Assembly: GCA_038087875.1 (NCBI GenBank) | Contig: CM075992.1 | Location: 560,001 to 624,000 of the forward strand | DNA length: 64,000 nt | DNA from: Malacoraja senta | Lineage: Eukaryota | Reading direction: 5' to 3' | Part shown: positions 4,384 through 59,049 of the stretch, in pieces | Layout of the letters: every line of letters begins with the position of its first letter | Numbering within the stretch: position 1 is the stretch's first letter | Translations under genes and position numbers: made by a program | Notes under the pieces: generated by a model | What the model saw: the letters and a program-made list of their open reading frames with translations, nothing else | Told to the model about the DNA's origin: nothing | Database searches by the model: none

Positions 4384-5297
4384 CTGGAGAAAGAGTGGAG
4401 AGAATGAGAAAGGGGAAAGGAGAGGACAAACTGAAAGAACAGTCATCACGAACACCAACCCGGCCCACAGTGAACGGACGCCCATCTGAGACACAACTTG
4501 GAGATGAATAGTAGAATCAAGGAACCGCAGATGGTGGTTAATACACAAAAAGGACACAGAGTGCTGGAGTAACTCAGCGGGTCAGGCAGCATCTGTGGAG
4601 AACATGGATAGGTGACGTTTCAGGCTGCTCTCCACGCATGGGATCGGAGCAGAACGCAGCTTACACCATGCCATGAATTCTTGGCCCCCTGTCACACTGA
4701 GATACTGGCCATTGGAGTTCTCCTGAGAGATGATCCACACACTCACTATTCGTTACTTTCCTCACCCAATGTGAAAACCTCACCCCATTTAGTTTGCTTT
4801 GCTTTGGTTAGGTTTGGTTTAGTTTAGAGATACAGCATGGAAACAGGCCCTTCGGCCCCACCAGGTCGGCAGCGACCATCGATCACCCATTCACACTAGT
4901 TCCACGTTATCCCACTTTCTCATCCACTCCCTACACACTAGGGGCAATTTACAGAGGGCTGATTAACCTACAAACCCGCACGTCTTTGGGAAGTGGGTGG
5001 AAACCGGAAACCCATGCAGTCACTCATGGCTAAGGGGATCAGGGGATATGGAGAGAAGGCAGGTACGGGATACTGAGTTGGATGATCAGCCATGATCATA
5101 TTGAATGGTGGTGCAGGCTCGAAGGGCCGAATGGCCTACTCCTGCACCTATTTTCTATGTATCTATGTATCTATGTCACGTTTAGTTTTGTTTATTGTCA
5201 CAGCGAAAAGCTTCTGTTACTGCTAGCCAGCGGAAAGGCAATACATGCCCAAGCGAAATATGAGATGCTGTTCCTCCAATTTGTGTTATGAATATGC

Positions 5298-5609
5298 TGC
5301 TGGCCTTGCCGAGGCAGCATGAGGTGTAGATGGAGTGGATGGAAGGGAGGTTGGTTTGTGCGATGGCCTTGCCGAGGCAACATGAGGTGTAGATGGAGTG
5401 GATGGAAGGGAGGTTGGTTTGTGCGATGGCCTTGCCGAGGCAGCATGAGGTGTAGATGGAGTGGATGGAAGGGAGGTTGGTTTGTGCGATGGCCTTGCCG
5501 AGGCAACATGAGGTGTAGATGGAGTGGATGGAAGGGAGGTTGGTCTGGGCTGCTGGCCTTGCCGAGGCAGCATGAGGTGTAGATGGAGTGGATGGAAGGG
5601 AGGTTGGTC
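5298..5609. repeat. Five copies of a 63-bp minisatellite
   Basis: Units start at 5301, 5364, 5427, 5490 and 5554. Confidence 0.92.
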
Positions 5610-10776: not shown

Positions 10777-11228
10777 GTCACCACCTATCCATGTTCTCCA
10801 GAGATGCTGCCTGACCCGCTGAGTTACTCCAGCACTCTGTGAAACGTCACCTATCCATGTTCTCCACAGATGCTGCCTGACCCGCTGAGTTACTCCAGCA
10901 CTCTGCGAAACGTCACCTATCCATGTTCTCCACAGATGCTGCCTGACCCGCTGAGTTACTCCAGCACTCTGTGAAACGTCACCTATCCATGTTCCGGCAG
11001 CATCTATGGAGCGAAGGAAATAGGCAACGTTTCGGCCCGAACCCCTTTCGGGTTTCGGCCCGAAACGTTGCCTATTTCCTTCAGGGTTTCAGCCCGAAAG
11101 ATTGCCCATTTCCTTCGCTCCACAGATGCTGCCTGACCCGCTGAGTTACTCCAGCACTCTCTGTGAAACGTCACCTATCCATGTTCTCCACAGATGCTGC
11201 CTGACCCGCTGAGTTACTCCAGCACTCT
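10777..11228. repeat. 66-bp array with an internal inverted junction (composite copy 1)
   Basis: Reverse complement of the 66-bp unit, interrupted at about 10995-11120. Confidence 0.9.
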
Positions 11229-11356
11229 ATGTCTTTTATTACTACATCACTTTTATTACTCAAGCACTTTGTGTCCTTTTGTGCAAAACTTTTTCACTGC
11301 CCCTCGGTGGTCCACATAACACCAATAAACCCAGACGCAGCGTTGTGAGTCGTTAC

Positions 11357-13383: not shown

Positions 13384-13700
13384 AGTGAAAGGGGGGGGGG
13401 ATAAAGGGAAAATATAGGAGTCTGGGATGGGGGATGAAGGTACAGAGGAGGGGAAGGAGCAGGGTGACTGGGGCGGTGACAATGGTGAGAGAAATCTGTG
13501 CGCAATTACTTGAAATTGGAGAATTCGATGTTCATACCGTCAGGCTGTTGGGTGCCCAAGCGGAACATGAGGTGCTGTTCCTCCAGTCTGCGTGTGGCCT
13601 CTCTCCGTCAATGGAGGAGGCCCAGGACAGAAAGATCAATGTGGGAATGGGAAGGAGAGTTAAAATGGTTAGCAACCAAGAGATCCAGCCAACCTTGGCA
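13384..13700 (-). mobile_element. Penelope-like element: GIY-YIG endonuclease C-terminus plus downstream pyrimidine-rich UTR
   Basis: The minus strand reads VANHFNSPSHSHIDLSVLGLLH*RREATRRLEEQHLMFRLGTQQPDGMNIEFSNFK*, typical of the end of Penelope ORFs. Confidence 0.8.
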
Positions 13701-14554
13701 GACAAAGTGTGAAGAAAACATGTTTGGGTCCAGCCTCGCATTGGTTCATGCAACACACATTGCACCATGCACATGTTTTAGACCTCAATATATCTGATGC
13801 AAAGTGCTGGAGTAACTCAGCGGGACAGGCAACATCTCTTGAGAGAAGGAGTGGGTGACGTTTTGGATCGAGACCCTTCGTCTGAAGAAGAGTCCCCGGC
13901 CCGAAACGTCACGCATTCCTTCTCTCCAGAGATGCTGCCTGTCCCGCTGAGTGACTCCGGCACTCTGTGTCTAACAGGATAACGTTGTTACATTGGTCGG
14001 AGATAAGGATTAGGGGAAGATGCTGGCATTGAACCACCGGTAACTGAAGCCAAACGCATCGCAGGCAAGCGGAATGTGGAGCACCAGTGTGTTTCCATGG
14101 TTACTGCACTGTTGCAGAGTACACTGGAGCGCATCTCCTGACAAGAACGCAGGGACAACGTTGACCATTGCCGCTCGCTCCAAAGTTCATGTTGATAATC
14201 GGTAGGAGCAGAATTAGGCCATTCGGCCCAACAAGTCTACTCCACCATGTGGGTCAAGACCTTTTTACATACTGGATTATAATATCCACTTCTGAGGTCC
14301 ATCTTAACTGTGATACTGTTTGGGCAGGGAGGGGCACATCAGTGAGCAGTGCTGAACTACTATCTACCTCATCACTGACCCTCGGACTATCCTTGATCGG
14401 ACGTTACCTTGCACTAAACGTTATTCCCTTATCATGTATCTGTACACTGTAAATGGCTCGATTGTAATCACGTATTGTCTTTCCGCTGACTGGATAGCAG
14501 GCATCAAAAGCTTTTCACTGCACCTCGGTACACGTGACATTAAACTAAACTAGA

Positions 14555-14855: not shown

Positions 14856-15805
14856 TGTGCAATGGGAGACAGGCTTAGTTAAACAACCTCACCCCTGTAA
14901 CAAGAGCCCTGTGATCACACGTTCCTGATCTTCCCGTTTAGAGTTCAAAGACTGGGACCTGGTACCTGTCGGCATGGACACCCACTGCCCGCTGAGATAA
15001 CGTGTTTGTTTACAGATTTAACTGGTGTAGACATCAAAGCAAACAGGCAACTCCAGCAGGACTTGTAGACCGATCCCCAAGGCTCAACAGGTCAGTATCC
15101 CTTGGTATCGATTCCAGGGATCGATCCAGGTCGTTCAGTGATGCAGCTCTCGAGAGGCCCCTTTGCACTGCTTGAGCTGGTGTATTAAGTGTCCTGTTAC
15201 TGGGCACGAGTCATTCAATCACGACACGTCACCAGATGCTCAGGGAGACAGCGGAGACTGATAAATGCCACTGCATCTCGCATTCTCCTGAACAAAACGA
15301 TCGATCCAACAAGATCCCGTTCACAATTCCTTCAGCCTCGAGAATCAAGACCTTCTGATTTTAGATGATCAGCCATGATCATATTGAATGGCGGTGCTGG
15401 CTCGAAGGGCCGAATGGCCTACTCCTGCACCTGTTTTCCTATGTTTCTATGTTTATGGACAAACCAGTACGTCTTTGGAGTTTGGGGGGGAAACCGGAGC
15501 ACCCGGGTAAAACCCACGCAGGTCACGGGGAGAACGTGCAAACTCCGTACAGACAGCACCCGTAGTTATGCCCTGGCGCTACGAGGCAGCAGCTCTACCA
15601 CTGCACCACCGTACCTATCTACTGTGGGCTGGATTGAGAGCCATATAATGATAAGGACCTGCTTCAAGAATATATATTTTAAAAATATCCACGATTAGCA
15701 AAACAGCTGCCATGAAGAGTAGCCAATAATGTTTAGTCTGTTCACATTGCATGACAACACCAAGCTGACGAGAATTACAATTCTGCCGATCATCTCATTA
15801 TGGGT

Positions 15806-15833
15806 CTGAAGAAGGGTCTCGACCCGAAACGTC
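15806..15833 (+). ncRNA. Minimal hammerhead-ribozyme core motif (intact copy)
   Basis: CTGAAGA-A-GGGT(CTCG)ACCC-GAAAC-GTC. Confidence 0.6.
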
Positions 15834-15919
15834 ACCTATTCCTTCGCTCCATAGATGCTGCCTGGCCCGCTGAGTTTCTCCAGCATTTTTGTCCACCTCA
15901 TTAATGGGAATTGTAATAG

Positions 15920-16809: not shown

Positions 16810-17390
16810 CAAGTCAAGTCAAGTGAGTTTATTGTCATGTGTCTCAGATAGGACAATGAAATTCTTGCTTTGCTTCAGCACAACAGAACATAGTAGGCAT
16901 TGACTACAAGGCATTCTATAAATATATACACAATGGTCAATATACTGATAAAGTGCAAATAACAGTATTGGCTAATAAAGTTTAGTGTTATGTCTGAGCC
17001 AGGTTTAATAGCCTGATGGCTGTGGGGAAGTAGCTATTCCTGAACCTGGTCGTTGCAGTCTTCAGGCTCCTGTACCTTCTACCTGAAGGTAGTAGGGAGA
17101 TGAGTGTGTGGCCAGGATGGTGTGGGTCCTTGATGATACTGCCAGCCTTTTTGAGGCAGCGACTGCGATAGATCCCCTCGATGGAAGGGAGGTCAGAGCC
17201 GATGATGGACTGGGCAGTGTTTACTACTTTTTGTGGAGTTTTCCTCTCCAGGGAGCTCAAGTTGCCGAACCAAGCCACGATACAACCGGTCAGCATGCTC
17301 TCTACTGTGCACCTGTAGAAGTTAGAGAGAGTCGTCCTTGACAAACCGACTCTCCGTAATCTTCTCAGGAAGTAGAGGCGCTGATGCGCC
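16810..17390 (-). mobile_element. Rex1/Babar-type LINE 3' fragment
   Basis: NFYRCTVESMLTGCIVAWFGN...LLPSGRRYRS...FP.AIRLLN, then AATAAA and a (TTGAC)n tail. Confidence 0.85.
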
Positions 17391-17889
17391 AGGATAAAGT
17401 GAGATGTTCAGATGTGCGGTGTCTCTCGTTCATAGACCAGAGAACAGTACAGCCACAGGAACTGTGCCCACAATATCTGTGCCAAACACCAATAGTCACG
17501 AGTGTTTGATTGTCGAATGTATCCAAACCGGAACAATAAAATCTCTACTTGCAGCAGCATCACAGATCTGTAAACATAGTACTCATGGATATCACAATGA
17601 ACAAAATTAAAGTTCAATACATTCTTTAAAAGATTGATAATAGTGCAAAAGCAAAGCCCAAAGTCCCTGTTGCAAACAAGCCAGCTCAAGTTAAATTCAT
17701 GTCCCTCTGCCTGTATGTGATCTTTACCCCTCCATATCCATGTTCCTATCTAAAATACACTTAAACCTGTCTCACACCACCACCCCTGGCAGTGCGTTCA
17801 AGGCACCCACCACCCTGTGGAAATAAAAACACTTGCTCCGCACATCTCCTTAAAACGTTGCCTCTCTCACCTTACAATAATGCCCCCTA

Positions 17890-18186: not shown

Positions 18187-20164
18187 TTGCACATCTTTCA
18201 AACTTTGCTTCAGATGCTTCCAGAACCAAAAATTGGGCACCTCTGCTATAGGTGTAAGTCGTAGTCAAGAGTTGTACAACACAGAAACAAGCCCTTCTGC
18301 CACCATATCCATGCCCAACCCTCTCCCCCAACGACACTAATTCCACTTGAAGAAGGGTCTCGACCCAAAACGTCACCCATTCCTTCTCTCCAGAGATGCT
18401 GCCCGTCTCACTAAGTTACTCCAGCATTTTGTGTCTATCTTCGGTGTAAACCAGCATCTGCAGTTCCTTCTTACGCAAGGAATTACACTGAAGACAGAAA
18501 CAAAATGCTGGAGTAACTCGGCGGGACAGGCAGCATCGCTGGAGAGAAGGACAGAGGTCTGACAATATGTAGGTAACATCTCATGAAAGGCTTTGGATCA
18601 GAGGGTAATGACAGACCACTCTGCCGAGGCTAATGCCTTAGCAAGTACTCACTGGCACTTCTGGTAATTATGCATGGCTGGTTGTCAGATTACTGCTGTT
18701 AAGAATCACAATATTAGTGGTTCAATAGGCAACAGTATTAATTAAGCAATCATTTTCTTTGCGGAACGCAGCGAGGAATTGCTACTACTTTGTCGAGAGA
18801 TTTTAGTTTGGAAATTCAGCATTGAAACAGGCCCTTCGGCCCAACGAGTCCATGCCAACCATCGATCAGCCATACCCACTTTCTCATCCACTCCCTACAC
18901 ACTCTGAGCAATTTACAGTCAATAAACCTATAAAACCCGCACGTCTTTGGGATGTGGGAGAAAACCGGGGCTCCTGGAGAAAATCCACGTGGTCATAATG
19001 AGAATGTGCAAACTCCAACTTATATAATGAGTATTTGACAGCACTGGGCCTGCACTCGCTGGAGTTTAGAAGAATGAGGGGGGACCTCATTGAAACGTAC
19101 AGAATAGTGAAAGGCTTGGATAGAGTGGATGTGGAGCGGATGTTTCCACTAGTGGGAGAGTCTAGGACTAGAGGGCACAGCCTCAGAATTAAAGGACGTT
19201 CTTTTAGGAAGGAGATGAGGAAGAATTTCTTTAGTCAGAGGGTGGAGCAGTGGTAGAGTTGCTGTCTCACATCGCCAGAGCCCTGTGCTCGATCCTGAAT
19301 GGAGTTTGTACGTTCTCCCCGTGACCTGCGCGGGTTTTCCCCGGGTGCTCCGGTTTCCACCCACACTCCAAAGACGTGCAGGTTTGGAGGGTAATTGGCT
19401 TGGGTAAGAATTGTAAATTGTCCCAAGTGTGTGTAGGATAGTGCTAGTGTACGAAGATTGCGGGTGGACGCAGACTTGATGGGCCGAAGGGCCTGTTTCT
19501 GCTCTGTATCGCTTAAAAAGACTAAATTGGAATAGGAGGACAATGCGGAGTATGGTATACGGGACTGATATCGATGTGTACAATGGTCGGCATGGAATTG
19601 ATGGGCCGAAGGGCCTGTTTCTGCGCATAATGAAACAAGACAGGGGGGGGGATGAAAGATAGGAGCATTATACACGTCCATGTCTGTGTCAGTTCCACGT
19701 GAGCCACTCACAACCCTGCACAAAACCATTTGGATCGGAGGGTTAATTAACTGTCCGTTGCAAGAGGCCATTAGGGTTTTGTTCCAGCTCCCTCATTAGT
19801 TTTACCGAGTTTGGAAACGCTGACTGATCCATGAAAGATATCCTTTGTAATCATATTTAACTGGGGGAAAACCTCTCACGGCTATGACTAATGCAGCTGG
19901 AACAAACAGATCAATGCCCCCAAGAGCCATCAGCATTCTTCCTCTGCTCGTGTTGTATTACTAGTGATCAGTCAGTGGGCGTATCGGGGCAAAGTGGTCA
20001 CTATCAACCTGACCATGCTCGTCACGTCAATAAACGCAGAGAGACAACTCCACATTCACAGAGTCATACAGTGTGCAAACAGGCCCTTCGGCCCAACTTG
20101 CCCACGCCGACCCACATGCCCCACGTTTGGCCCATATCCCTCTAAACCCGTCCTATCCGCTAGG

Positions 20165-20905
20165 ACAGCACGGTGGCGCAGCGGTAGAGTTGCTGCCTCA
20201 CGGCGCCAGAGACCCGGGTTCGACCCCGACTACGGACGCTTGTCTGTACGGAGTTTGTACGTTCTCCCCGTGACCTGCGTGGGTTTTCTCCGAGATCTTT
20301 GGTTTCATAGAAAAACATAGAAACATAGAAAATAGGTGCAAGAGGAGGCCATTCGGCCCTTCGAGTCAGCACCGCCATTCATTGTGATCATGGCTGATCG
20401 TCCCCAATCAATAACCTGTGCCTGCCTTCTCCCCATATCCCTTAACACCACTAGCCCCTAGAGCTCTATCTAACTCTCTCTTAAATCCATCCAGTGATTT
20501 GGCCTCCACTGCCCTCTGTGGCAGGGAATTCTACAAATTCACAACTCTCTGGGTGAAAAAGTTTTTTCTCACCTCAGTCTTAAATGGCCTCACCTTTATT
20601 CTAAGACTGTGGCCCCTGGTTCTGGATTCCAGGTTTGTAGGTTAATTGGCTTTGTTTAAATGTAAAAAGTTATCCCTAGTGTGTGTCTGAAGAAGGGTCT
20701 CGACCCGAAACGTCACCTATTCCTTCGCTCCATAGATGCTGCCTCACCCGCTGAGTTTCTCCTGCATTTTTGCCTACCTTCGATTTTTCCAGCATCTGCA
20801 GTTCTTTCTGAAACACCCAGTGTGCGTTAATGTGCGGGGATTGCTGGTCGGTGCAGACTCGGTGAGCCAAAGGGCCTGTTTCCGTGCTGTATTCCTAAAC
20901 TAAAC
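20165..20905 (+). mobile_element. HE1-like SINE split by a minus-strand CR1 (about 20306-20629) and a hammerhead-motif element (about 20686-20813)
   Basis: The SINE body resumes after each insert. Confidence 0.75.
20687..20714 (+). ncRNA. Minimal hammerhead-ribozyme core motif (intact copy)
   Basis: Same 28-nt motif. Confidence 0.55.
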
Positions 20906-23990: not shown

Positions 23991-25444
23991 CCAAGTCAAC
24001 TCCTCAGACAAGTCAACCACGGGCCAGTTGTCGGCACTCAGCCAATCACTCTGGTCTTGAAGAGAAACAAAGGTACGCGGACACGACATCTCTGAAGAAG
24101 AGGCTCAACCCGAAACGTCACCCATTCCTTCTCTCCAGAGATACTGCCTCTCCACCATTTTTGTGTCTACCTTCACTGTAGCCCAGCATCTGCAGATCCT
24201 TCCTACACAAGTTTAGTTTAAATCTGTGCTTTGCAATGCTTTGCAACCATCACATTGTGTCATGCTTTGGATAAACCGGTGAATGCAAGTTTGGAGGGAA
24301 CATTTTTATTGAGATGGATCAGGAAGATAGCAGATGGTAAATGCATCATCTCTAAAAGAATGAAAGAGTTTCCTCCATCAATTACACGAGCTCAGATGCA
24401 AACCATCATTAAATTAGATGGTTTATAGTCATTCAATGGTATGAAAGAAATGATGACATTTTCATTTATAAATATAGCAATGCTTCAACAGAGACAGCTA
24501 CACAATGAAAGTTTGCATATAAAAACTCTGCCACCACTGTGTAATTTAAATTGGCTCCATTTCAATCTCATCTCAGCCACAAGAGAACATCAGGAAGTCT
24601 GCAAAAGACTTCTAAAAATCTTGCTGAATATTGGAGTATAGACATTTTAACTCCCCGCATTCTGACAGCATTTTCTTAAATATTTATTTCCTCATCATCT
24701 TGCAAAGCTGACAAATTCACTTGCACTTAACTCCAACTGGCTTTACCTGAAAAACTGACTATGGTATTCAATGCCACCTACAGTGTAGACTCTGACGAGC
24801 AGATTAATTCTCGTACAGGGTGCTCCACCACTGGTGGTCTTAAAAATGGCAGCAGAGTTACTCCAGCACTTTGTGTCTTCTTTTCTAAACCAGCATCTGC
24901 AGTTTCTTGCTTCTACCCTTAGTTTAGTTTAGTTTAGTTTAGTTTAGAGATACAGCGCGGAAACAGGCCCTTCGCCCACCGAGTCCGCCCGACCAGCGAT
25001 CCCCGCACACCAACACTATCCTACACACACACACACACACTAGGGACAATTTACAATTAAACCAAGCCAATTAACCTACAAACCTGTACGTCTTTGGAGT
25101 GTGGGAGGAAACTGTGATCCCAGGGAAAACACGCGGTCACGGGGAGAACGTACAGGGGGCATCAGGCTCTTGAATACTGCAAAACTACAAACTACTGCCT
25201 TTGGTTACATAAAGGACTGAGGACAGGATCAAACCCGGTCTCTGACGCTGTGAGGCAGCGGTTCACTCTTGCCACCCACAATGCTGTGTGGTTTTGGGGT
25301 AATGGACAATCTCCAAACTCTAGATAGTCTGAGGAAGGGTCTCGACCCAAAACGTCACCCATTCCTTCTCTCCAGAGATGCCGCCTGTCCAGGTTTTTGT
25401 GTCTATCTTTGGTTTAAACCAGCATCTGCAGTTCCTTCCAACAC

Positions 25445-25875
25445 AATATGAATATTGACTCTCTAACTTCAATTAACCCTTGCATTCCCCCTCTCTCCCA
25501 TTCCTCTCCATCCCAGTTCTCCAACTAGTTTCACTTTCCTCCTGATTAAATTTAACTTTGTATGCCTCGTGGTCACCTTCCTCAACCAACATTGATCTAT
25601 TCTATCGGCCCGAAACGTTACCTATTTCCTTTGCTCCATAGATGCTGCTGCACCCGCTGAGTTTCTCCAGCATTTTTGTGTACCTATTGATCTATTCTAC
25701 ATTGTCCTTGATCGTTCCCTTTGATCTCTCGTTTCCACACCTTACCCCCTGCCATATCTCTCGTTTCCCTCTCCCCCCGACTCTCAGTCTGAAGAAGGGT
25801 CTCGACCCAAAAACATCACCCATTCCTTCTCTCCAGAGATGCTGCCTGTCCCGCTGAGTTGCTCCAGCATTCTGC
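25445..25875 (+). mobile_element. Penelope-like ORF end and terminal (pseudo-LTR) region with a decayed hammerhead motif at about 25789
   Basis: ATGAATATTGAC..TCTAACTTC (an MNID.SNF remnant) runs into the UTR shared with copies at about 2440, 51340 (minus) and 56600. Confidence 0.7.
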
Positions 25876-26639
25876 GTTTAGCTTAGGAACGTTGTGGATG
25901 GTACCACATCACAAAGTGCCCACTCCTGCTCCTTCCCACATCCAAAGCTACGGCTTCATTAAATGCAAGACGCACACCAAGATGGGTCACAGTTACAGAG
26001 CGAGACCACAAGAAAGGAAACGAAAAATTCAGCAGAGTGAAAAGGGCCTAAGGCAATCCATGCTCTAAAACAGATCTGAAGAAGGGTCTCGACCCTATTT
26101 CCTTCGCTCCATAGATGCTGCCTCACCCGCTGAGTTTCTCCAGCATTTTTGTCTAATTTTGATTTTCCAGCATCTTCAGTTCCTTCTTAAACAGATTTAA
26201 ACCAAGTGCTTTTGAAACCCTGCATAAGACCTGCAACAAACCAACTTACACACTTCAATTAAGGGACTTAAGTGAAAGACAGCAGGAGAGATATTTAACC
26301 ATCTATCAAATAAGTGCCAGCCCTCTGCTGCAGTTCATTATTAAGCCCAATCACGCAGTATGTGAGCCAGATTAAGTCAAGTTTACAGACTGGGGAAGAA
26401 TCAGTCTTTGTGTTTATTGGATGTAAATACCTTGTGGGATCAGACTGTGGGAATGTTAATTCACAAAACTGGTGGATAGATTAATGCAACGAGAAAGAGG
26501 CTTTCAAAACCGTTCCGATTCCAAGATCCAACCAAATTTGTTGTTGAGGATTAAAGGACGTTCTATGTACCCTTCCATATCGCCCGTTTCCCACTCCCCG
26601 ACTCTCAGTCTGAACAAGGATCTCGACCCGAAAAACGTC

Positions 26640-27141
26640 ACCCATTCCTTCTCTCCAGAGATGCTGCCTGACCCGCTGAGTTACTCCAGCACTCTGTGAA
26701 ACGTCACCTATCCATGTTCTCCACAGATGCTGCCTGACCCGCTGAGTTACTCCAGCACTCTGTGAAACGTCACCTATCCATGTTCTCCACAGATGCTGCC
26801 TGACCCGCTGAGTTACTCCAGCACTCTGGGAAACGTCACCTATCCATGTTCTCCACAGATGCTGCCTGACACGCTGAGTTACTCCAGCACTCTGGGAAAC
26901 GTCACCTATCCATGTTCCGGCAGCATCTATGGAGCGAAGGAAATAGGCAACGTTTCGGCCCGAAACCCTTCCGGGTTTCGGCCCGAAACGTTGCCTATTT
27001 CCTTCAGGGTTTCGGCCCGAAAGGTTGCTCATTTCCTTCGCTCCACAGATGCTGCCTGACCCGCTGAGTTACTCCAGCACTCTGTGAAACGTCACCTATC
27101 CATGTTCTCTACAGATGCTGCCTGACCTGCTGAGTTACTCC
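26640..27141. repeat. 66-bp array with the same inverted junction (composite copy 2)
   Basis: The junction at about 26918-27040 is nearly identical to that of copy 1. Confidence 0.9.
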
Positions 27142-28463
27142 ATGTGTATCTTTTTAAACAGCTCGTCCAAAGGACTGCACACGTTAGATCTTGTAGATAG
27201 ACACAAAATGCTGGAGTAACTCAGCGGGACAGGCAGCATCACTGGAGAGAAGGGATGGGTGACATTTCGGGTTGAGACCCTTCTTCAGACTGAGCATTTA
27301 AACCTCAAGGTCTGAAGAAGGATCTCGACCCAAAATGGAGGAAGATGACTGAATTTTAATGCCTTCTATCACAGTGAGGAATGTTGGTTCCACTGTGGTG
27401 GATGTTTATGTTAAATTGATTTTATGTGTGTATTGTGTACTTTTCACTTCGTATGGCTGTATGGCAACTCAAATTTCACTGTAGCTTAGTTGGTTAAGTG
27501 ACAATAAATGCAAACTTGAACTATCATCAGTGTAAACCAGCATCTGCAGTTTATTCCTACACATTAGATAGAAACATTGACATAGAAAGATAGAAAATAG
27601 GTGCAGGACCAGGCCATTCAGCCCTTCGAGCCAGCACCCCCATTCAATATGATCATGGCTGATCATCCAAAATCAGTAGGAAAGAACTGCAGATGCTGGT
27701 TTCAATCGGTTTAAAATCAGTACCAAAAAGCATCCAGAATCAGTACCCCGTTCCTGCGTTCTCCCCATATCCCTTGATTCCGTTAGCCCTAAGAGCTAAA
27801 TCTAACTCTCTTGAAAACATCCAGTGAATTGGCCTCCACTTGGTACAGGTTGGTGGGTTAGTGCAGAATATGCCATCTAGTGTGAGATGTCGATGTCAAT
27901 GGCTGCTTGTGTTACATCTACACTGCCAGATGAATGACCATGTTGGTGGCAGTTCAGTTTAGTTCCTCATGTGAAGTGAGTTCCAGTGAAAAGCACCAGG
28001 CTGCCCCAATATCGGGCATCAGCTGTGATGAAGCAGATGCGTTTCCCATTTCCCTTCACTGCTCCAGACACTTCACTGTATTTTCGTGCTGCGTTGGGTT
28101 GGTGGATTGCAGCTGGAAGTTCCCCTGTGGCCCGGAGGCAAGAAGAGAGAGGGAAGTGTACCGAGTCCCACTGTGACTGAACATGCACCAAGTACAGACC
28201 ACCCCAGGCCAGAGGCAGGACCAGTGCCCCTGCACTGCAGCTGATGCCAGGCCTTATAATCCCCAACACAGGCGGCACGATGGTGCAGCGGGTAGAACTG
28301 CTGCCTTACAGAACCAGGGACCCACGTACAATCCCGACTACTGGTGCTGTCTGTACGGAGTTTGTACGTTCTCCCCGTGACCTGCGTGGGTTTTCTCCTG
28401 GATCTTCTGTTTCCTCCCACACTCCAAAGATGTACGGGCTTGTAGGTTAATTGCCTTGGTGTA

Positions 28464-28718
28464 CAGTGCATTCAGAAAGTATTCAGACCCCTTCGCTTTT
28501 TTCACATTTTGTTACGTTACAGCCTTATTCTAAAATGGATTAAATTCATTTTTATCATCATCAATCTATACACAATACCCCAGAATAAAAAAGCAAAAAC
28601 AGGCGTTTAGCAATTTTGTGTGTAGATTGAAAATGAATATAATACATAGGAGAATAAGGCTGTAACGTAACAAGATGCGGAAAAAGTGAAGGGGTCTGAA
28701 TACTTTCTGAATGCTCTG
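28464..28718. mobile_element. Tc1-derived MITE, 255 bp
   Basis: About 68-bp TIRs beginning CAGTGCATTCAGAAAGTATTCAGACCCC; TA duplicated on both sides. Confidence 0.92.
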
Positions 28719-28720
28719 TA

Positions 28721-29587
28721 TGTGAGTGGGCAAATGTTTGGCAGATGCAGTATAATGTGGATAAATGTGAGGTTATCCACTTTGGTGGCAAAAACGGGAA
28801 GGCAGACTATTATCTAAATGGTGGCCGATTAGGAAATGGGGAGATGCAGCGAGACCTGGGTGTCATGGTACACCAGTCATTGAAAGTAGGCATGCAGGTG
28901 CAGCAGGCAGTGAAGAAAGCGAATAGTATGTTGGCCTTCATAGCAAGAGGATTTGAGTATAGGAGCAGGGAGGTTCTACTGCAGTTGTACAGGGTCTTGG
29001 TGAGACCACACCTGGAGTATTGCATACAGTTTTGGTCTCCAAATCTGAGGAAGGACATTATAGCCATAGAGGGAGTGCAGAGAAGGTTCACCAGACTGAT
29101 TCCTGGGATGTCAGGACTTTCATATGAAGAAAGACTGGATAGACTTGGCTTATACTCGCTAGAATTTAGGAGATTGAGAGGGGATCTTATAGAAACGTAC
29201 AAAATTCTTATGGGGTTGGACAGGCTAGATGCAGGAAGATTGTTCCCGATGTTGGGGAAGTCCAGGACAAGGGGTCACAGCTTAAGGATAAGGGGGAAAT
29301 CCTTTAAGACCGAGATGAGGAAAAACTTTTTCACACAGAGAGTGGTGAATCTCTGGAACTCTCTGCCACAGAGGGTAGTTGAGGCCAGTTCATTGGCTAT
29401 ATTTAAGAGGGAGTTAGATGTGGCCCTTGTGGCTAAAGGGATCAGGGGGTATGGAGAGAAGGCAGGTACGGGATACTGAGTTGGATGATCAGCCATGATC
29501 ATACTCGAAGGGCCGAATGGCGGTGCAGGCTCGAAGGGCCGAATGGCCTACTCCTGCACCTATTTTCTATGTATCTATGTATCTATG
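28721..29587 (+). mobile_element. 5'-truncated CR1 (HER1-like) LINE, young subfamily
   Basis: Uninterrupted 244-aa ORF with CR1 ORF2 C-terminal motifs (LYRVLVRPHLEYC.QFWSP, TRGH, FFTQRVVNLWNSLP) and a (TATCTATG)n tail. Confidence 0.95.
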
Positions 29588-31379
29588 TGTGTAGGATAGT
29601 GTTAGTGTGTGGGGATCGCTGGTCGGCACGGACCCGGTGTGCTGAAGGGTCTGTTTCCATGTTGTGTCTGTAAACTAAACAAGTCAGGAGCTCAGAGGTC
29701 TAGGTCCAGATGATGCATTCACCATTCATTCTTCAACACTGTTGATAATAAGATCTTCTGCCATCTAAATACCAAACCAGAAATCCTTCCCCAAATGTCC
29801 CACACCTATCCCATCTCTCCACGTTCCCCTCAGAACAACGCAAGTGCCCAACAACGCAACGCAAGGAGTTAGCGCGGTGAAGAAGGCACACGGTAGATAT
29901 GTCTTCATTGGTCAGAGCAGCGAGTATAAGAGGCAAGAAGTCCTGTTGTAGATTTGTCGGGCTTTAGTTCTGCCACATGTGGAGCATTTTGCGTGCAGTT
30001 CTGGTCGCCCCATTACAGGAAGAATGTAGAGGCTTTGGAGAGGCTACAGAAGACGTTTACTAGAATGCTGCCGGGATTATGAGGTATTAGTTACAAGGAG
30101 AAAAAAAAGACACAATGTGCTGGAGTAACTCAACGAGTCAGACAACACTTCTGGAGAACATGGACAGGCAACGTTTCGGGTCGGGACCCTTCTTCAGACT
30201 CATTGTCAAGGGGATAGGAGGAAAGTGGAAGAGAGATGGTGGTGGCTGGCTACAAGGACACTCTTGGATTATCTTCTCTGGAAGACCGGAGATTGAGGGG
30301 CGACCTGATGGAAGAACAGAACATTATGAGAGGCAGTTAGAAACCTTCTCCCCAGGGTGGAAATGTCAAAGACTGGTGGACACAGCTTCAAAGTGAATTG
30401 GGACAAAGTTTACAGGAGACGTGGACAAGTTTGGAAGTGGTGGTAGAGGCAGATACGATAGACACATTGAAGAGGCTTTAGGATAGATCTATGGACAAGC
30501 GGGAATGGAGCGATATGGATCATGTTCAGGCGGATGTCATAGTCATAGAGTGATACAACGCGGAAACAGGCCCTTCCCCTCAACTTGCCCACACCAGCCA
30601 ACATGTCCCATCTACACTGGTCCCACCTGCCCGTGTTTGGTCTTCAATCCTGTCCTATCCATGTACCTGTCTAACTGTTTCTTAAACGTTGGGATGGTCC
30701 CAGCCTCAACTACCTCCTCCGGCAGCTCGTTCCATACACCCACCACCCTCTGTGTGAAAATAGATCCCCATTAAATCTTTTCCCCTTCACCTTAAACCTA
30801 TGGTGACCCCATAAAGATGAGTTTAACTTGGCATCATGTTCGGCACCGACACAGTGGGTCAAAGCGTGGGTGTTCCAGTCCTGTACTGCTCTATGTTCTA
30901 AAGTGCCTTGGATGATGTCGTTGCTGAATAAATTCAAGTGGTAATAATGAATGCAGGATGAAAGTGTGTTATAGCCACAGCTGGGCTGCCACAGCCCTTT
31001 CATGTTCTAATGCAACACTCATTTGCACAGAGTAGGGGGTGGGGGCTGAGAATCCACCCTGAGGTCAGTGATACATCATGCAGCATTTTCCCATTGATCG
31101 GGAGCAGAGACCACACCACCATAAATCCAAGCGCAGCATCGCCCCCTCGCCCCACTCTCCTGTTTAATCACAAACTTGTGGCACTGACTGGAGGCGAGCC
31201 AAGCGGAAAATGAAACACAGACCTTTAACGCTCAGAATGCTCGTCGTTAACCCCTCATCTCCCAACACTCTCAAAGTCAAGGTCGTGCCAAGATGGCCAT
31301 CGGATGAGTACCAGGATAAACACCATGTCATAAATCTACCCACTACCCAAGGGGCCAGAATCCCACCATTTGTTTAGAT

Positions 31380-31970: not shown

Positions 31971-32351
31971 GATCACGTAGCAAAGGTAATTGTGTTAGTG
32001 GGGGAGAGGGGCTTGGGGGCCAAAGAGTTTCAGACTCGCAATAACAAAGTGTTTTTCTTCCAGAACGATTTTCAAAAATAAAGGATCATTTGTGAAATTC
32101 AAGTTGTTATGGGAAGTGGACGGGCAGAGTTTGAAAAATGGCTTAATTCCAGACTTAATAACCAAAAATTCAAAACTCAATAACCGCTCAAATATTTTCC
32201 GAATTAACTTTGACATTATTTCAGTGTGCCTGCACATTATCATGTCAGACCAGACTGGTTCTGCTAAGATTGCCAAGCCTGGATTAGTTGTAAATATGAA
32301 TGCTGAGTGTACTGGGATATTAAATGGTGGACTAACCTACCTTGTTTTATC

Positions 32352-32870
32352 GAAGATAGACACAAATGCTGGAGTAACTCAGTGCAGATAGACAAAGTGC
32401 TGGAGTAACTCAGTGAAGATAGACACAAATGCTGGAGTAACTCAGTGCAGATAGACACTAAATGCTGGAGTAATTCAGTGAAGATAGACACAAATGCTGG
32501 AGTAACTCAGTGAAGATAGACACAAAATGCTGGAGTAATTCAGTGAAGATAGACACAAAATGCTGGAGTAATTCAGTGAAGATAGACACAAAATGCTGGA
32601 GTAATTCAGTGCAGATAGACACAAAATGCTGGAGTAATTCAGTGAAGATAGACAACATGCTGGAGTAACTCAGTGAAGATAGACACAAAATGCTGGAGTA
32701 ACTCAGTGAAGATAGACACAAAATGCTGAAGCAATTCAGTGAAGATAGACAAAGTGCTGGAGTAACTCAGTGAAGACAGACACAAAATGCTGGAGTAACT
32801 CAGTGAAGATAGACAAAGTGATGGAGTAACTCAGTGAAGATAGACACAAAAAGCTGGAGTAACTCAGCGG
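32352..32870. repeat. About 16 copies of a 30-33-bp minisatellite GAAGATAGACACAAAATGCTGGAGTAACTCAGT
   Basis: The array runs directly into a full copy of the parent element (32870-32935). Confidence 0.9.
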
Positions 32871-33560
32871 AACAGGCAGCATCTCTGGAGAGAAGGGATG
32901 GGTGACGTTTTCGGTCGAGACCCTTCTTCAGACTATCTAGAGATTGTAGCTTGTCCATTACCCCAAAAACGCACAGCACAGTGGGTGGCAACAGTGACGC
33001 AGCGGGTAGAGCAGCTGCCTCACAGCGCCAGAGACCGGGTTTGATCCTGTCCTCAGGTGCTGCCTGTGCGGAGTTTGCACGTTATACGTGTAACCGCGTG
33101 GGTTTCCTGCGGGTGCTCCAGTTTCCTCTTCTCTTCCTCTTCCATCTCTGGAGAGAAGGAATGGGTGACGTTTTGGGTCGAGTGAAGAAGGGTCTCGACC
33201 CGAAACGTCACCCATTCCTTCTCTCCAGAGATGCTGCCTGTCCCGCTGAGTTACTCCAGCATTTTGTGACTATATTCCTTTATCCTGTATCTGTACACTG
33301 TAAATGGCTCGATTACAATCATGTATAGTCTTTCTGCTGACTGGTTAGCACGGGACAAAAAGCTTTTCACTGTACCTCGGTACACGTGACAATAAACTGA
33401 ACTGAGTTACTGCTGGCGGGAGTTTGGAAACCCTTCCAAGGCATTGTCTTATCTCACTAGCAGTAACTGTGGCTGGAGACTTGACGTTTGGTCTTTGAGT
33501 TTATCCCCAACCTACACCCAACCTTCAGTGTTAAAGAAGGAACTGCAGATGCTGGAAAAC

Positions 33561-33588
33561 CTGAAGAAGGGTTTCGGCCCGAAACGTT
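33561..33588 (+). ncRNA. Minimal hammerhead core, UUCG-loop variant
   Basis: CTGAAGA-A-GGGT(TTCG)GCCC-GAAAC-GTT. Confidence 0.55.
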
Positions 33589-34852
33589 GCCTATTTCCTT
33601 CGCTCCATAGATGCTGCTGCACCCGCTGAGTTTCTCCAGCATTTTTGTGTACCTCCAACCTTCAGTGTTATAACCAGTGAAACAACAAACATTGCACTTT
33701 GTGCTTTTTCATTCCACGGTTACTCATGACAACAGCCTGGAGATGATTTCATTCCTTGAGGTTTTCAAGCGATCCTGAAGTGTGGGGAATATCGCACCTT
33801 GTGTGTCAAGGCGGGCTGACGTCATCACCCCACCCTGGGGACTTCACCGGATGGTGTCAACAGCTGAGTGAAGCAAGTGGCAGCGAGCTTGGCATGGATC
33901 CTCACCGGAGACCCAGGACCATTGAAACTTAACGATGGGCATTGGCGATGAGCAGAGCCATGGAGAGGAGACTGCAAGCCATGGAGGGCGTTCACTTCAA
34001 CATCAGCCAACATTAGAGTAGACAAAAGTGCTGAAGAAACTCAGCGGGTGCAGCAGCATCTAAGGAGCGAAGGAAATAGGCAATGCTTCGGGCCCGAAAC
34101 GTTGCCTATTTCCTTCGCTCCATAGATGCTGCTGCACCCGCTGAGTTCCTCCAGCACTTTTGTCTAACTTCGATTTTCCAGCATCTGCAGTTCCTTCTTA
34201 AACAGCCAACATTAGAGTAGATGACATGTACAAAGCTACAGCCAGGGGTGGCTCCAAATACAAACAAATGCTTTACTAGCCCTGACACCAAAGGTCTCGA
34301 CCTGAAACGTCACCTATTCCTTTTCCGTCTGTCCTGCTGAGTTACTCCAGCATTTTGTGTCCATCTTCGATTTAAACCAGCATCTGCAGTTCCTTCCTAC
34401 ACCAGGATTCCCTGGATAGGTCGCTCACTAAAGGATAATAGCGGTTTATTTTTAGGTTTTGGTTCTATTGTTTCCGCGTGTACCGGGGTACAGTGAAAGG
34501 CTTTGTTTTGCATGCCATCCGAGCAGATCAGATCTACCACACAAGGACACAATCAAGTCAAACTCAAGTACAATTGATAGGGCAAAGGGGAAGATACAGA
34601 GTGCAGAATAAAGTTCTCAGCTTTGTAGCGCATCAGTTCCAGAGACAAAGTCCAATGTCCACAGTGGGGTAGAGGTGAATCGAACAGTACCCTAGACAAA
34701 AGACAATAGGTGCAGGAGTAGGCCATTCGGCTCTTCGAGCCAGCATCGCCATTCAATGTGATCATGGCTGATCATTCATTCATTCACAGGAAGACAAAAA
34801 TGCTGGAGTAACTCAGTGAGTGAGGCAGCATCTATGGAGCGAAGGAATGGGT

Positions 34853-34880
34853 GACGTTTCGGGTCGAGACCCTTCTTCAG
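34853..34880 (-). ncRNA. Minimal hammerhead core motif (intact copy)
   Basis: Reverse complement of the 28-nt motif. Confidence 0.55.
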
Positions 34881-36769
34881 ACATTCATTCATTCATTCAT
34901 TCATTCACCATCACTACCTTTTTTCCATTTAGATTTAGTGTTTAGTTTAGGAGATACAGTGCGGAAACAGACCCCTTCAGCCCACCGAGTCCGCACTGAC
35001 CAGTGATCCCCGCACACTAACACTATTCTACACACACTAGGGACAACTTACAATTATACCAGGCTGATTAACCTACAAACCTGTACATCTTTGGAGTGTG
35101 GGTAGCTTATGGAAGGACCGTTCATAAACCCAGATAATGTAGGGCAAGAGTCTGATATTGCGTGCACTTTCCCAATGTTCCAGGAATCGTGAGTGCCTGA
35201 GTACAGACGATGTAGGTAGACTGATTAAAGAACAAAAATGTACTCCTTTGGCATTGGGCAATGGGTGGAGCTGCTGTCTCATTGCACCAACGTCGTGCGT
35301 TCAATCCTGGAGTTTGCACATTCTTCCTGGGACCACATGGGTTTCCTCCAGGTGCTCTGGTTTCCTCCAACTTCCCAAAGTTGTTCAGGTTGATAGGCTG
35401 TTTATAAAATCACCCTGAGTGCGGGTGGATGGGGGAAATCGATGGGAATACAGGGAAAGGTTACCTGGAGAAATTACTGGTGGAATGAATTTGGTACGTA
35501 GATAAAAACACGGTGGTGGTGGGGCTAAGAGTGGTGGCTCTTAGAATAAAGGGGAGGTCATTTAACGCTGAGGTGAGAAAAAAAAATTCACCCAGAGAGT
35601 TGTGAATTTGTGGAATTTCCTGCCACAGAGGGCAGTGGAGGCCAAGTCACTGGATGGATTTAAGAGAGAGTTAGATAGAGCTCTAGGGGCTAGTGGAATC
35701 AAGGGATATGGGGAGAAGGCAGGCACGGGTTATTGATAGGGGACGATCCGTCATGATCACAATGAATGGCAGTGCTGGCTCGAAGGGCCGAATGGCCTCC
35801 TCCTGCACCTATTTTCTATGTTTCTATGTTTCTATGCTAGTGTGGATCAGGCACCTTGGTCAGCATTGGCAAGTTGGGCCGAAGGGCCTGTTTCCCTGCT
35901 GTGACTATGACTCTATGAACGAGGTTCCTATGTGGACCAAATGTGCCAATGGGGACCAAATGTTTTTTTCAGTCAGAAAGAAATATATAATTAAACCCTT
36001 ATTTTTCCAGTCACGTGGCAGGTTTGTTTGTTATTTGTGTGCATTGGCACCGTTCTATGTACAAAAACAAACACTGGTTAAAACCGTACCCTCTCTAAGA
36101 TCACTCCTGCCGCCTGTGGCTTTATGCTGAACATCGAGGGGGGTGGTAGTGGCGGAGAGACGGTCAACCTACACACGCCACGTCACCACAGATCTCCGTA
36201 GAACTGACCCAAGCATAAAGAGTTCCTGTCCACACCCCCGCAGCGTCCCCTTGCCCAGTGCCAAAAGCAAGCCATCCTCCCCCCACCTTCAAATAACTGG
36301 TTCTATGAGTAAAAGCAGTTCCTCGCCTCAAGGCCCAACACAGAACTATTTTGGTTTCTCTTCAATTACAATTTGGCAGAAGCAGTCTTAGGCAATTCTT
36401 AAAGCAACAACCAAACTCATAGGTACATATTTAACATAACCTACAATTCTGAACCACGGCTCAAAATTGCACCTTTAGTTGGAGATATTCCAGGAAACTT
36501 TCCTCCATTAAAGACCTGCATTGATCTTATATTTGAAGCGACCTCATACCAAACTGGAAATGCAAGGTGTAATTTTTAGTTTGCTTATCAAAGTGATGAG
36601 ATACTGTTGGCAAAGGATCAAAGGGACTTTTCGTTTTGTTCTCTCCTTCCTGACCCAAACGTAAATCAAAGCCATCAGCAAAGCCCGAAAGGTTACAAAG
36701 AAAATACTGCTAACAATTTCGGCCGTGACAACAACAATGAAAATGATTTGTTTTTCTGGCTTAGAGATT

Positions 36770-37060: not shown

Positions 37061-38036
37061 CAGTTACTGATCTGAATTCACACACGAGGTTTAAAGTTTT
37101 TGGAAGACAACCAAAGCTGGAGAAAAAAGTTGGTCTAATCCTTCATCGGTAAAGCCTTGCTTTCATCCAATCTCTAACAAAGTCCAAAGAACATCGAACT
37201 ATTTTACGCCCATTGACTACAATTCAAAACCAAAGTGCCAATGATTGAAAATAACCACGTCAACTTGTGCGGAGGAATCTCCTGCTGCAATAACATGGTG
37301 AGGCAAAGAGACTCCGTCAACGCTGGAATCTAAAGCAAAAAAAGCACAGAGTGCTGGAGGAACTCAGCGGGCCAGGCAGCATCTGTGGAGGGAATGGACA
37401 GATGATGTTTTGGGTCGGGACCCTTCTTTGGACACTGGATTAGGGGGGGAGGGGGGTTGGGGGGAGAGGTCAGAGGAGAGGTTTCTCCAATTTCAAGCTC
37501 TCCAATTTTTTTTCATACACCCCCCACACTTTCCCCATGCAACCCTAGTGTACACACAGCCTACTCCTTCCCCCTGTCCCCCACCCCCCCCGCTCATTTC
37601 ATATCCCCAAGTCCCCCATTCCACATTTAACCCCCTTCCTTCCCCTTCTACCCGTATCACTCCTCCGGCTTTACATTTCACTCCTCATCATCTCTTCTTA
37701 TCTGTCACCCTTCTGTTTCCTTTTCACCTCCAGCCTTTGTCACCTACTCCATCCATCTGCCAATTAAACCTGCGTGTGAGAAGGAACTGCAGATGCTGGT
37801 TTAAACCGAAGATAGACACAAAAAGCTGGAGTAACTGCAGGACAGACAGCAACTCTGGATAGAAGGAATGGGTGACATTTCGGGTTCAGTCCGAAGAAGG
37901 GTCTCAAGAGATGCTGCCTGTCCCGCAGAGTTACTCCAGCTTTTTGTGCCAAGTAAACCTCCTCCCACCTGTATCCACCTATCACTTACCAGGTTTTACC
38001 CCACCCCCACCTCTCTTTTCCAGCTTTCTCCCCCAC

Positions 38037-40079: not shown

Positions 40080-40585
40080 GCCTACTGAGAGCATGCTGAC
40101 CGGTTGCATCGTGGCTTGGTTCGGCAACTTGAGCGCCCTTGAGAGGAAAAGACTACAAAAAGTAGTAAACACTGCCCAGTCCATCATCGGCTCTGACCTC
40201 CCTTCCATCGAGGGGATCTACCACAGTCGCTGCCTGAAAAAGGCTGGCAGCATCATCAAGGACCCACACCATCCTGCCCACACACTCATCTCCCTACTAC
40301 CTTCAGGTAGAAGGTACAGGAGCCTGAAGACTGCAACGACCAGTTCAGGAACAGCTACTTCCCCACAGCCATCAGGCTATTAAACCTGGCTCGGACATAA
40401 CACTGAACTTACTAGCCAATACTGTTATTTGCACTTTATCAGTATATTGACCATTGTGTATATATTTATAGAATGCCTTGTAGTAAATGCCTACTATGTT
40501 CTGTTGTGCTCAAGCAAAGCAAGAATTTCATTGTCCTACCAGGGACACATGACAATAAACTCACTTGACTTGACTTGACTTGACT
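40080..40585 (+). mobile_element. Rex1/Babar-type LINE 3' fragment, close relative of the 16810 copy
   Basis: Same ORF end, 3' UTR and (TTGAC)n tail. Confidence 0.85.
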
Positions 40586-40654
40586 TCTCCTTGTCCCAAG
40601 CTGATAGCTTCAACTGTCAATTAAAATAATCCTATATTTCTACTGAAAAATATG

Positions 40655-40940
40655 CAGAGTGCTGGAGTAACTCAGCAGGTCAGGCAACATCTCTGTGGGA
40701 CATGGATAGGTGACGTTTCACAGAGTGCTGGAGTAACTCAGCGGGTCAGGCAGCATCTGTGGAGAACATGGATAGGTGACGTTTCACAGAATGCTGGAGT
40801 AACTCAGCGGGTCAGGCAGCATCTGTGGAGAACATGTATAGGTGACGTTTCACAGAGTGCTGGAGTAACTCAGCGGGTCAGGCAGCATCTCTGGAGAACA
40901 TGGGATAGGTGACGTTTCGGATTGAGATTCTTCTTCAGAC
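40655..40940. repeat. Four copies of the 66-bp unit ending in a decayed minus-strand hammerhead motif
   Basis: Direct inspection. Confidence 0.9.
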
Positions 40941-51398: not shown

Positions 51399-51426
51399 GA
51401 CGTTTCGGGTCGAGACCCTTCTTCAG
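51399..51426 (-). ncRNA. Minimal hammerhead core motif within a Penelope terminal region
   Basis: Reverse complement of the 28-nt motif. Confidence 0.55.
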
Positions 51427-51624
51427 ACTGACAGTAAGGGGAAAGGGAACTGCGAGATATAGACGGTGATGGAGAGAGATATAGAACAAGCGAATAAAAG
51501 ATATTGCGAAAAGTATGATGATCAAGGAAAGGTGGAGCCCACAACGGTCTATTGTTGACTGTGGGCTTGGTGATAACGAGTTATACAGACAAGAACTGGA
51601 CCCTCACTCTCTGCACTGATTTAA

Positions 51625-56778: not shown

Positions 56779-56806
56779 CTGAAGAAGGGTCTCGACCCGA
56801 AACGTC
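56779..56806 (+). ncRNA. Minimal hammerhead core motif within a Penelope terminal region
   Basis: Intact 28-nt motif preceded by the native GACTCTCAGT. Confidence 0.55.
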
Positions 56807-59005: not shown

Positions 59006-59049
59006 CTGACAGTGAACCGGGATCAGTCCCAGCATCAGCACCAAACAGC

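Follow-up and report, generated by a model that had tools for sequence, protein, structure and literature searches.

What is the short repeat that recurs throughout a 64,000-nt stretch of Malacoraja senta DNA (GenBank assembly GCA_038087875.1, contig CM075992.1, positions 560,001 to 624,000 of the forward strand; hereafter the window), and how did so many copies of it come about? An original prediction, made from the letters alone, had described an abundant mini-element with a minimal hammerhead-ribozyme core and had assigned it to a non-autonomous family mobilised by Penelope machinery. The analysis presented here identifies the repeat, with high confidence, as an end piece of a Penelope-like element (PLE) of cartilaginous fish that carries a C-terminal GIY-YIG domain and is probably of the Neptune type: the last few bases of its pseudo-long terminal repeat (pseudo-LTR), a minimal hammerhead motif and the tail of the element. 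Since minimal hammerheads of PLEs and their mass of dispersed fragments have been known since 2014, the motif alone is no news. The family bears on questions that are still debated, namely how PLEs assemble their pseudo-LTRs, inverted ends and tails, and what role the ribozyme plays.

Hammerhead cores in the window

The focal copy (15804 to 15899, plus strand) is of the short form, in which the motif and tail run to the proximal 3' end, and it starts 2 nt before the core. Its minimal core (15806 to 15833, plus strand; definition of PMC4209133) comprises CUGAAGA (15806-15812), an extra A (15813), helix II (15814-15817 with 15822-15825), GAAA (15826-15829), a palindromic CG (15830-15831) and UC (15832-15833), with cleavage predicted after 15833. 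The exact 28-nt core recurs at 20687 and 56779 on the plus strand and at 34853 and 51399 on the minus strand, and there is no sixth in the window, so that the five sites originally named all hold. The variant cores are likewise as claimed: GGGT(TTCG)GCCC followed by GTT at 33561, and GGGT(CCCG)ACCC at 30197-30171, within a minus-strand copy (30099 to 30218) that has GTT and a pyrimidine tract in front. A looser pattern, CTGANGA-N13-GAAAC, matches the window 11 times against 0.07 expected, and none of 100 shuffles reaches 11. The repeat is indeed very common. A search seeded with 14 window copies placed the family, tandem derivatives included, in 64 segments totalling 7,682 bp, or 12% of the window; insertion density is about one per 1.8 kb (36 units in 63.6 kb).

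The motif shows the published sequence traits of the minimal type I hammerheads of PLEs. Both boxes, with UH at the cleavage site, are intact in 13 of 30 aligned copies. The extra A between positions 9 and 10.1 is found in 29 of the 30 and the closing pair G10.1-C11.1 is G-C in 26, while helix III is absent and the palindromic CG at 15.2-16.2 is kept in 11 of the 13 intact cores. All four pairs of helix II form in 8 of these 13, and 90% of cells are paired. Helix I sits at the lower published limit; as had been cautioned, it is short, being 2 bp long in 10 intact-core copies, 1 bp in two and 6 bp in one. The last is the focal copy, in which helix I consists mostly of flanking DNA; the target-site duplication (left arm 15794 to 15803; right arm 15897-15907, with one extra A) supplies four of the six pairs from its left arm.

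Connection with a Penelope-like element

At 25448-25875 the end of a GIY-YIG open reading frame (ORF), about 310 bp of 3' untranslated region (UTR) and pseudo-LTR, a core and a tail are contiguous. The ORF-end remnant that had been reported beside the motif is genuine. It holds the C-terminus and stop codon of the PLE ORF (25448 to 25476, plus strand); in an interpretive reading of the read and contig tables, family reads and contigs mend one missing base and one substitution to give a C-terminal MNIDFSNFK-stop, in agreement with a longer remnant at 13509-13703. The 3' UTR or pseudo-LTR that leads from the ORF stop to the core (25477 to 25788, plus strand) ends in a pyrimidine tract and TCAGT and aligns with the pseudo-LTRs of the copies at 56596 and 51600; it is interrupted by a nested short copy of subfamily B (25605 to 25685, plus strand) with a perfect 14-bp target duplication. 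The core at 25789, which with a short tail closes the ORF-end copy (25789 to 25875, plus strand), is dead, its G12 being A. A long-form copy, also G12A, is joined directly to the ORF-end remnant as a partial tandem (25326 to 25445, plus strand).

The longer GIY-YIG C-terminal remnant (13509 to 13703, minus strand) has one in-frame stop and is 65% identical over 60 amino acids to the C-terminus of protein P0001 (E 2e-19), which gave a GIY-YIG match above the cut-off and an RVT_1 match below it. A Pfam search with the 65-residue remnant itself gave no match, and no reverse transcriptase (RT) remnant was found in the window; RT/GIY-YIG parentage is thus assigned by proxy, because the window remnant matches P0001. 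The named matches of the window remnant are proteins of whale shark, little skate and bamboo shark (three named species among 13 matches), as a cartilaginous-fish host would give. In a second, tiny ORF remnant (5247 to 5285, minus strand), 13 amino acids are identical to P0004; a 63-bp tandem array (5301-5608; about five units, 96% alike) adjoins it.

A scan with the motif pattern detected two loci in metagenomes (L001 and L002) and none in viral sequences. In L002 the motif lies directly 5' of a 961-residue RT/GIY-YIG ORF that is 49% identical to P0001, and in L001 it is antisense, upstream of a broken RT frame. The predicted linkage of the motif to RT/GIY-YIG elements is supported by the contiguity at 25448-25875 and by its place at the head of the L002 ORF. 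The stems kept in the two loci are not independent covariation, because the search pattern fixed most of helix II.

A CX2-5CxxC linker between RT and endonuclease marks the Neptune and Nematis groups and is absent, as a mark, from Penelope and Poseidon. It is present in P0001, in L002 and, within the last 260 amino acids, in 89 of 97 longer (full-length) relatives. Judged by proxy from these relatives, the window remnant itself stopping short of the linker, the parent is probably of Neptune type. The Penelope machinery originally invoked thus stands as far as PLEs in general are concerned, with a partner that is probably Neptune-type and not Penelope or Poseidon.

The possibility that the hammerhead likeness arose by chance, in a miniature inverted-repeat transposable element (MITE) or short interspersed element (SINE) unrelated to PLEs, is largely refuted and scarcely credible. 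It could draw on an Rfam search, which returned no hammerhead among 33 matches at E≤10 (its miRNA matches at 26943, 34038 and 46768 correspond to inverted pairs of the family), and on the folds of seven window copies, which are no stabler than shuffles (z 0.24 to 0.76). Covariation is also weak: two-sided changes occur in 5 of 178 cells, a number that none of 500 shuffles reaches, yet a slide of +2 gives 7, and the cells come from decayed or truncated copies; the helix changes of subfamily B are one-sided U-G. Set against this are the further traits published for minimal hammerheads of PLEs, all four of which are present, the PLE ORF end with which the motif is contiguous here and the PLE ORF that it heads in L002, and the unequal length of the inverted arms, which is unlike MITE termini.

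Structure of the insertions

The typical copy is a piece of 100-140 nt that consists of ribozyme and tail. Two 3' ends, about 35-40 nt apart, distinguish the short from the long form and correspond to the PLE tail. Besides the focal copy, the intact cores are found in a long-form copy with the 35-40-nt tail extension, inside a SINE (20685 to 20810, plus strand); in a short-form copy inside a (GAAT)n repeat (34788 to 34882, minus strand); in a copy with about 185 nt of pseudo-LTR (type A) before the core and a tail cut short (56596 to 56830, plus strand); and in a long-tailed copy whose pseudo-LTR, about 174 nt of it, is of a second type, with a TATA-like patch at -32 and with TCAGT in front of the core (51303 to 51600, minus strand).

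Direct repeats of at least 10 bp flank 11 of 36 units, among them 6 of 11 head-to-head pairs, compared with 15 of 300 random flank pairings. The six pairs lie inside one target duplication each and are therefore single insertion events. In the 11 scored pairs the arms are long and short in nine, both short in two and both long in none (four further pairs, interrupted or inside composites, were excluded from scoring). Several pairs have a spacer of 10-15 nt between the arms in place of a palindromic junction.

Pairs with duplications comprise an inverted long-tail end joined to the subfamily B core at 33561 with a short tail (33534 to 33655; 18 bp), a short and a long arm at 34018 to 34203 (18-21 bp), long and short arms at 37774 to 37950 (14 bp) and 53869 to 54081 (13 bp), a long and short pair with both arms starting at -2 (49378 to 49608; 14 bp), and a short arm with an interrupted long arm (27191 to 27562; 11 bp). 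Long and short arms are also combined in an older pair (42470 to 42700), in another at 62980 to 63168 and in the first of two adjoining pairs (46700 to 47050). Both arms are short in the pair directly upstream of the longer ORF remnant (13795 to 13975). The rarer tail-to-tail arrangement was observed in two cases, at 18319-18557 and 55166-55405.

The same core and tail terminate the 8 of 48 arms that carry at least 20 nt of pseudo-LTR, and the two 3' ends and inverted pairs are typical of ordinary PLE insertions. For these reasons, most copies are more simply regarded as direct short products of an autonomous element.

The 5' edge and the origin of the mini-copies

Where the copies begin is the feature that most needs explanation. 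Relative to the first core base, 26 of the 48 arms start at -7 to +1, none at -8 to -19 and 14 inside the motif, and the remainder are the eight with pseudo-LTR; the 48 comprise 41 of 67 script rows (the other 26 being array units, arms internal to composites or false anchors) and seven arms read by eye. The edge is not only an artefact of homology, because a target duplication or a partner arm abuts it at 15804, 20685, 26075 and 49507. Starts at the cleavage site occur in at most 1 of 50 tails; two of the 50 lack the GAAAC box in front, one through an internal deletion and one ambiguously.

In copies that retain more of the pseudo-LTR, such as those at 51303-51600 and 25477-25788, TCAGTCT precedes the core in five of six examined, and it does so in L001. 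The heptamer fits initiator consensus patterns, which occur at 0.1-1% of window positions. About 31 nt upstream is a TATA-like patch, which reads TATATA at -31 in L001. L001 (548-700, minus strand) is a fish-like PLE locus in which CCAAT accompanies the TATATA, with TCAGT directly before the same hammerhead motif. Four public runs were analysed over 25300-25900. In each of them the consensus of loose ends fades upstream of TCAGT, and among the 15 joints listed (2,268 more lie outside the list) those that lead from tail to head enter at -5, -3 and -2; one of the runs (X1) may itself be the source of the window and is then not independent, and contig depth does not equal copy number. Inspection of 5' junctions by eye for an additional, cap-derived G yielded too few cases for a judgement.

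These observations are put together in a mechanism that is proposed tentatively, at slightly less than even confidence: the mini-copies may be cDNAs that ran off the 5' end of PLE mRNA which had not been cleaved. The initiator-like TCAGT, which lies 3 nt ahead of the core, would serve as the transcription start and so place the ribozyme at the extreme 5' end of the mRNA. The PLE protein would begin reverse transcription internally, in the tail, where two sites are open to it. If it does so in the tail copy closest to the 5' end of the transcript, it would run off the uncleaved RNA template after about 100 or 140 nt, and the resulting mini-copy would be inserted. When both nicked target strands prime, one per tail site, a long and short head-to-head pair would arise within one duplication. 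Cores would decay after insertion, and a minority of derivatives would be copied again in trans. Starts at the cleavage site are expected to be scarce if unprocessed RNA serves as template (PMC11167929).

Taken as a whole, this combination of a PLE end piece with run-off copying is the best explanation at hand, and one on which the evidence leaves opinion evenly divided. A somewhat more speculative corollary is that this vertebrate genome contains 'strong-stop'-like cDNAs of a Neptune-type PLE in very large numbers, primed in the 5' tail, ended at the capped mRNA start before the hammerhead and often twin-primed.

Several points weigh against the proposal. The family yielded no full-length element, and a 5'-proximal tail copy on the mRNA is for this reason assumed from other PLEs. 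A clear target duplication is wanting in 25 of the 36 units, and the excess of long and short arms is not significant (permutation p 0.057). Nine of the start values were re-read by eye, the unedited script values giving 18 of 41. Window copies have only a weak TATA-like patch (5-6 of 8 matches, near -29 to -33 in three of six pseudo-LTRs). Read depth in the public runs drops 90- to 800-fold within 45-90 nt upstream of the edge, a figure that is inflated because other, divergent pseudo-LTR types fail to align; the ratio in the window is about 6:1 to 12:1. RNA reads (6% of one polyA run from another organism, hence of low power) come equally from both strands, and 97% run on into unlike sequence; they form no pile of starts at TCAGT, nor a pile of ends at the cleavage site. 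The TCAGT that follows a pyrimidine tract also reads as a splice acceptor, and in Penelope of D. virilis an intron ends at helix I while the start lies 121 nt upstream.

A splice acceptor figures in another account, in which the copies result from extreme 5' truncation: RT would start at the 3' tail copy of the mRNA, pass through the ribozyme and stall immediately 5' of it, where a pyrimidine tract or splice acceptor is bound by protein, and inverted pairs would form by fold-back self-priming. PLE copies are in general heavily 5'-truncated, and self-priming on an antisense template has earlier been proposed for head-to-head junctions; the pyrimidine tract with CAG at -4 to -2 and the 14 arms that start inside the motif, several of them at palindromic junctions, also fit. 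Once past the motif, however, the polymerase would meet no helix to stop it, and the interval from -8 to -19 holds no starts at all. The pairs whose arms are separated by 10-15 nt show no palindrome, and no splice joint into the core appears among the 15 joints listed. Extreme truncation is accordingly considered improbable.

Should run-off copying from the mRNA start be correct, the junctions would reveal, in natural material, the way in which pseudo-LTRs, inverted ends and tails arise, ribozyme cleavage would have no part in insertion in vivo, and the mini-copies with their remobilised derivatives would make up about a tenth of the window. Since many young copies have readable junctions, run-off and twin-priming models can be evaluated by counting in skate and ray assemblies. 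Extrapolating from this one window, the family may form a large and possibly mislabelled share of skate and ray genomes. It is present on both strands of polyA RNA, where folding-out of the ribozyme would presumably spare host transcripts.

Composites, arrays and possible remobilisation

Two composites of 66-bp core-less tail units and inverted subfamily B arms lie at 10779 to 11243 and 26570 to 27159 (both plus strand), the second of which opens with 42 nt of pseudo-LTR and has a damaged core. They are identical at 427 of 438 aligned bases and have different flanks, which indicates that the composite was copied again in trans, with local duplication as the alternative. If it was remobilised without an intact core, the core would be unnecessary for mobility. 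The copies at 25329 and 32931 have in common a leader of about 120 bp that is not PLE sequence (25205-25328, plus strand, and 32932-33055, minus strand) and consists of an inverted SINE head and a spacer. It represents either 5' transduction from a secondary master or a local duplication.

Such derivatives raise the prospect of a self-propagating non-autonomous family, whose mini-copies would owe their transcription to read-through or to an internal Pol II promoter made up of an initiator and downstream elements, and would be copied by the PLE protein in trans, in the manner of a SINE relying on a long interspersed element (LINE). The fixed 5' edge and the large excess over ORF-bearing pieces would be expected of it, as would the repeated composite and the common leader. 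An internal promoter is known in Penelope of D. virilis, and pseudo-LTRs suffice in trans (PMC3846280). The absence of an intact, chondrichthyan-labelled full-length ORF among the 97 longer relatives adds a weak argument. Conversely, several tail types of the window also occur with pseudo-LTR attached, a short-form master without the distal tail cannot yield long arms, the RNA run contains no discrete transcript, and the repeated composite could be a local duplication. Such a family is therefore unlikely to account for the copies. As regards the original proposal of a non-autonomous family, trans-mobilisation is indicated for the one twice-present composite, and a separate self-propagating family is not borne out for the bulk.

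The tail has seeded minisatellites of 66-bp units (1742-1959, 10779-10994, 26692-26917 and 40642-40857) and 33-bp units (32349-32867) that lack the catalytic core. The first is an array of the 66-bp unit on the minus strand (1742 to 1959); at 40642 to 40943 (minus strand) a core precedes the array, and at 32349 to 32934 (minus strand) a core and tail are followed by 16 copies of the 33-bp, tail-derived unit. Tandem arrays in the window would recall non-LTR retrozymes, in which the ribozyme cuts tandem transcripts to monomers that circularise and reinsert, and vertebrate retrozymes do stem from PLE pseudo-LTRs and are present in one chondrichthyan sampled (bioRxiv 10.64898/2026.07.22.740005). 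The 66-bp and 33-bp units, however, contain neither the CUGANGA box nor helix II, the window showed no array in which units with a core follow each other head to tail, and the copies are not bounded by the cleavage site. Inverted pairs, moreover, cannot form a dimer in cis, because the second core sits on the opposite strand. A retrozyme origin is thus very improbable.

Folding and decay of the motif

On folding, a 51-nt piece around the focal core (15795-15845) adopts the hammerhead shape with a stability like that of shuffles (z 0.33). When the tail is included, the core of most copies pairs with the pyrimidine run 3' of the cleavage site, and the probability of the hammerhead shape is 1e-7 to 4e-3 in all seven monomers folded. 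The folding energy of the dimer is 3-11 kcal/mol under twice that of the monomer, a figure that is uninformative as regards an intermolecular helix III. A single copy would not be expected to cleave, and activity, if any, would depend on dimerisation or on the PLE protein. In the mini-copies the ribozyme, whose cleavage is here predicted from sequence, is probably a passenger.

G12 has become A in 13 of 29 aligned copies, and about one third of reads lack G at this position. Special selection against G12 was not supported, since all four CpG sites of the core decay alike. The decay is strand-biased with respect to the element: 46 copies have 32 CpA against 13 TpG (p 0.007), in the same direction at the four sites, compared with 28 against 35 in a SINE control. 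This bias could come from editing of the cDNA strand or from master-copy effects. A reading of helix II as a Pol III B-box was dropped, an A-box apparently being absent at the right spacing.

Comparison with known elements

By sequence the motif is one of the PLE minimal hammerheads, and it presumably works as they do. Cervera and de la Pena (2014; PMC4209133) described minimal type I hammerheads in the pseudo-LTRs of metazoan PLEs, with thousands per genome, mostly dispersed single copies attributed to truncated PLEs. The CUGANGA and GAAA boxes, the extra base at 9/10.1, G10.1-C11.1, the palindromic 15.2-16.2 and the lack of helix III are the same in both, as are dispersed single copies and neighbours on opposite strands. 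Helix I is 2 bp here, as in D. virilis, and 4-5 bp in Schistosoma; helix II has 4 bp here and 6-8 bp there, and about one insertion per 1.8 kb contrasts with thousands per genome. The portions of that paper available describe no chondrichthyan and no fixed 5' edge, and names of sharks and skates gave no matches in two supplementary files. Motifs of this kind are reported to be inactive as monomers and weakly active as dimers, and in PAc the activity is assisted by protein (PMC4209133, PMC11167929).

PAc, the Poseidon element of Anolis, has two internal starts of reverse transcription that define an optional tail (Frangieh et al. 2024, PMC11167929). It shares with the present family this optional tail, a ribozyme at the junction of pseudo-LTR and ORF and the lack of RNA-seq ends at the cleavage site and, under the mechanism proposed above, extension of both target strands (in vitro for PAc) and an uncleaved RNA template. 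In contrast, PAc belongs to the Poseidon clade and has its start codon in stem II, whereas relatives of the present element have the Neptune-type linker and the motif contains no ATG; the ribozyme of PAc has demonstrated, protein-assisted activity, and that of the window is known from sequence alone. The available text of PMC11167929 contains no description of run-off mini-copies.

Partial tandems, inverted 5'-truncated copies, target duplications, a tail of 30-40 bp that is often one-ended, TATA and initiator-like motifs and solo pseudo-LTRs all have parallels among other PLE insertions (Craig et al. 2021, PMC8557442; Arkhipova et al. 2013, PMC3846280; Goubert et al. 2022, PMC8969392). The one-ended tail was already described in PLEs, and a pseudo-LTR of a rotifer has been reported to contain TATA and initiator-like motifs. 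There, inverted and solo pieces of about 180-220 bp lie beside longer copies, whereas here the ribozyme and tail piece usually occurs by itself. The two 3' ends, target duplications and head-to-head pairs are thus known PLE hallmarks, and the 5' edge at TCAGT, with its scarcity of starts at the cleavage site, was not found in the literature searched.

Non-LTR retrozymes (Cervera and de la Pena 2020, PMC7229834; Li, Clavereau and Pollet 2026, bioRxiv 10.64898/2026.07.22.740005) are similarly short, non-coding, hammerhead-bearing descendants of PLE pseudo-LTRs, and their vertebrate hosts include one chondrichthyan. They form head-to-tail arrays with a complete ribozyme per unit and circular RNAs, whereas the core-bearing copies here are single or inverted and the arrays core-less; by the tandem criterion, applied to the window, the repeat is not a retrozyme. 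No paper on this family, on run-off copies, or joining Penelope, strong-stop and hammerhead was found in a literature search that left most subscription papers outside its scope, as well as Repbase and Dfam, which may list the family.

Neighbouring sequence

The window contains 24 copies of one SINE, presumably HE1-like, and 3' fragments of two other LINE-type elements, which we take to be CR1-like (28700-29479, 45387-46050, 54431-54775 and 55814-56260) and L2-like (16988-17407 and 40060-40383), respectively; the latter matches Pfam ALKBH8_N. A coding stretch of the Tctex-1 family (44794-45110, minus strand; Pfam PF03645, E 6e-9) has an apparent frame change near 45030 and is either a pseudogene or an assembly error. 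A 21-bp tandem array (58249-59008) is followed by a GC-rich, island-like stretch (59083-59500), possibly the start of a gene.

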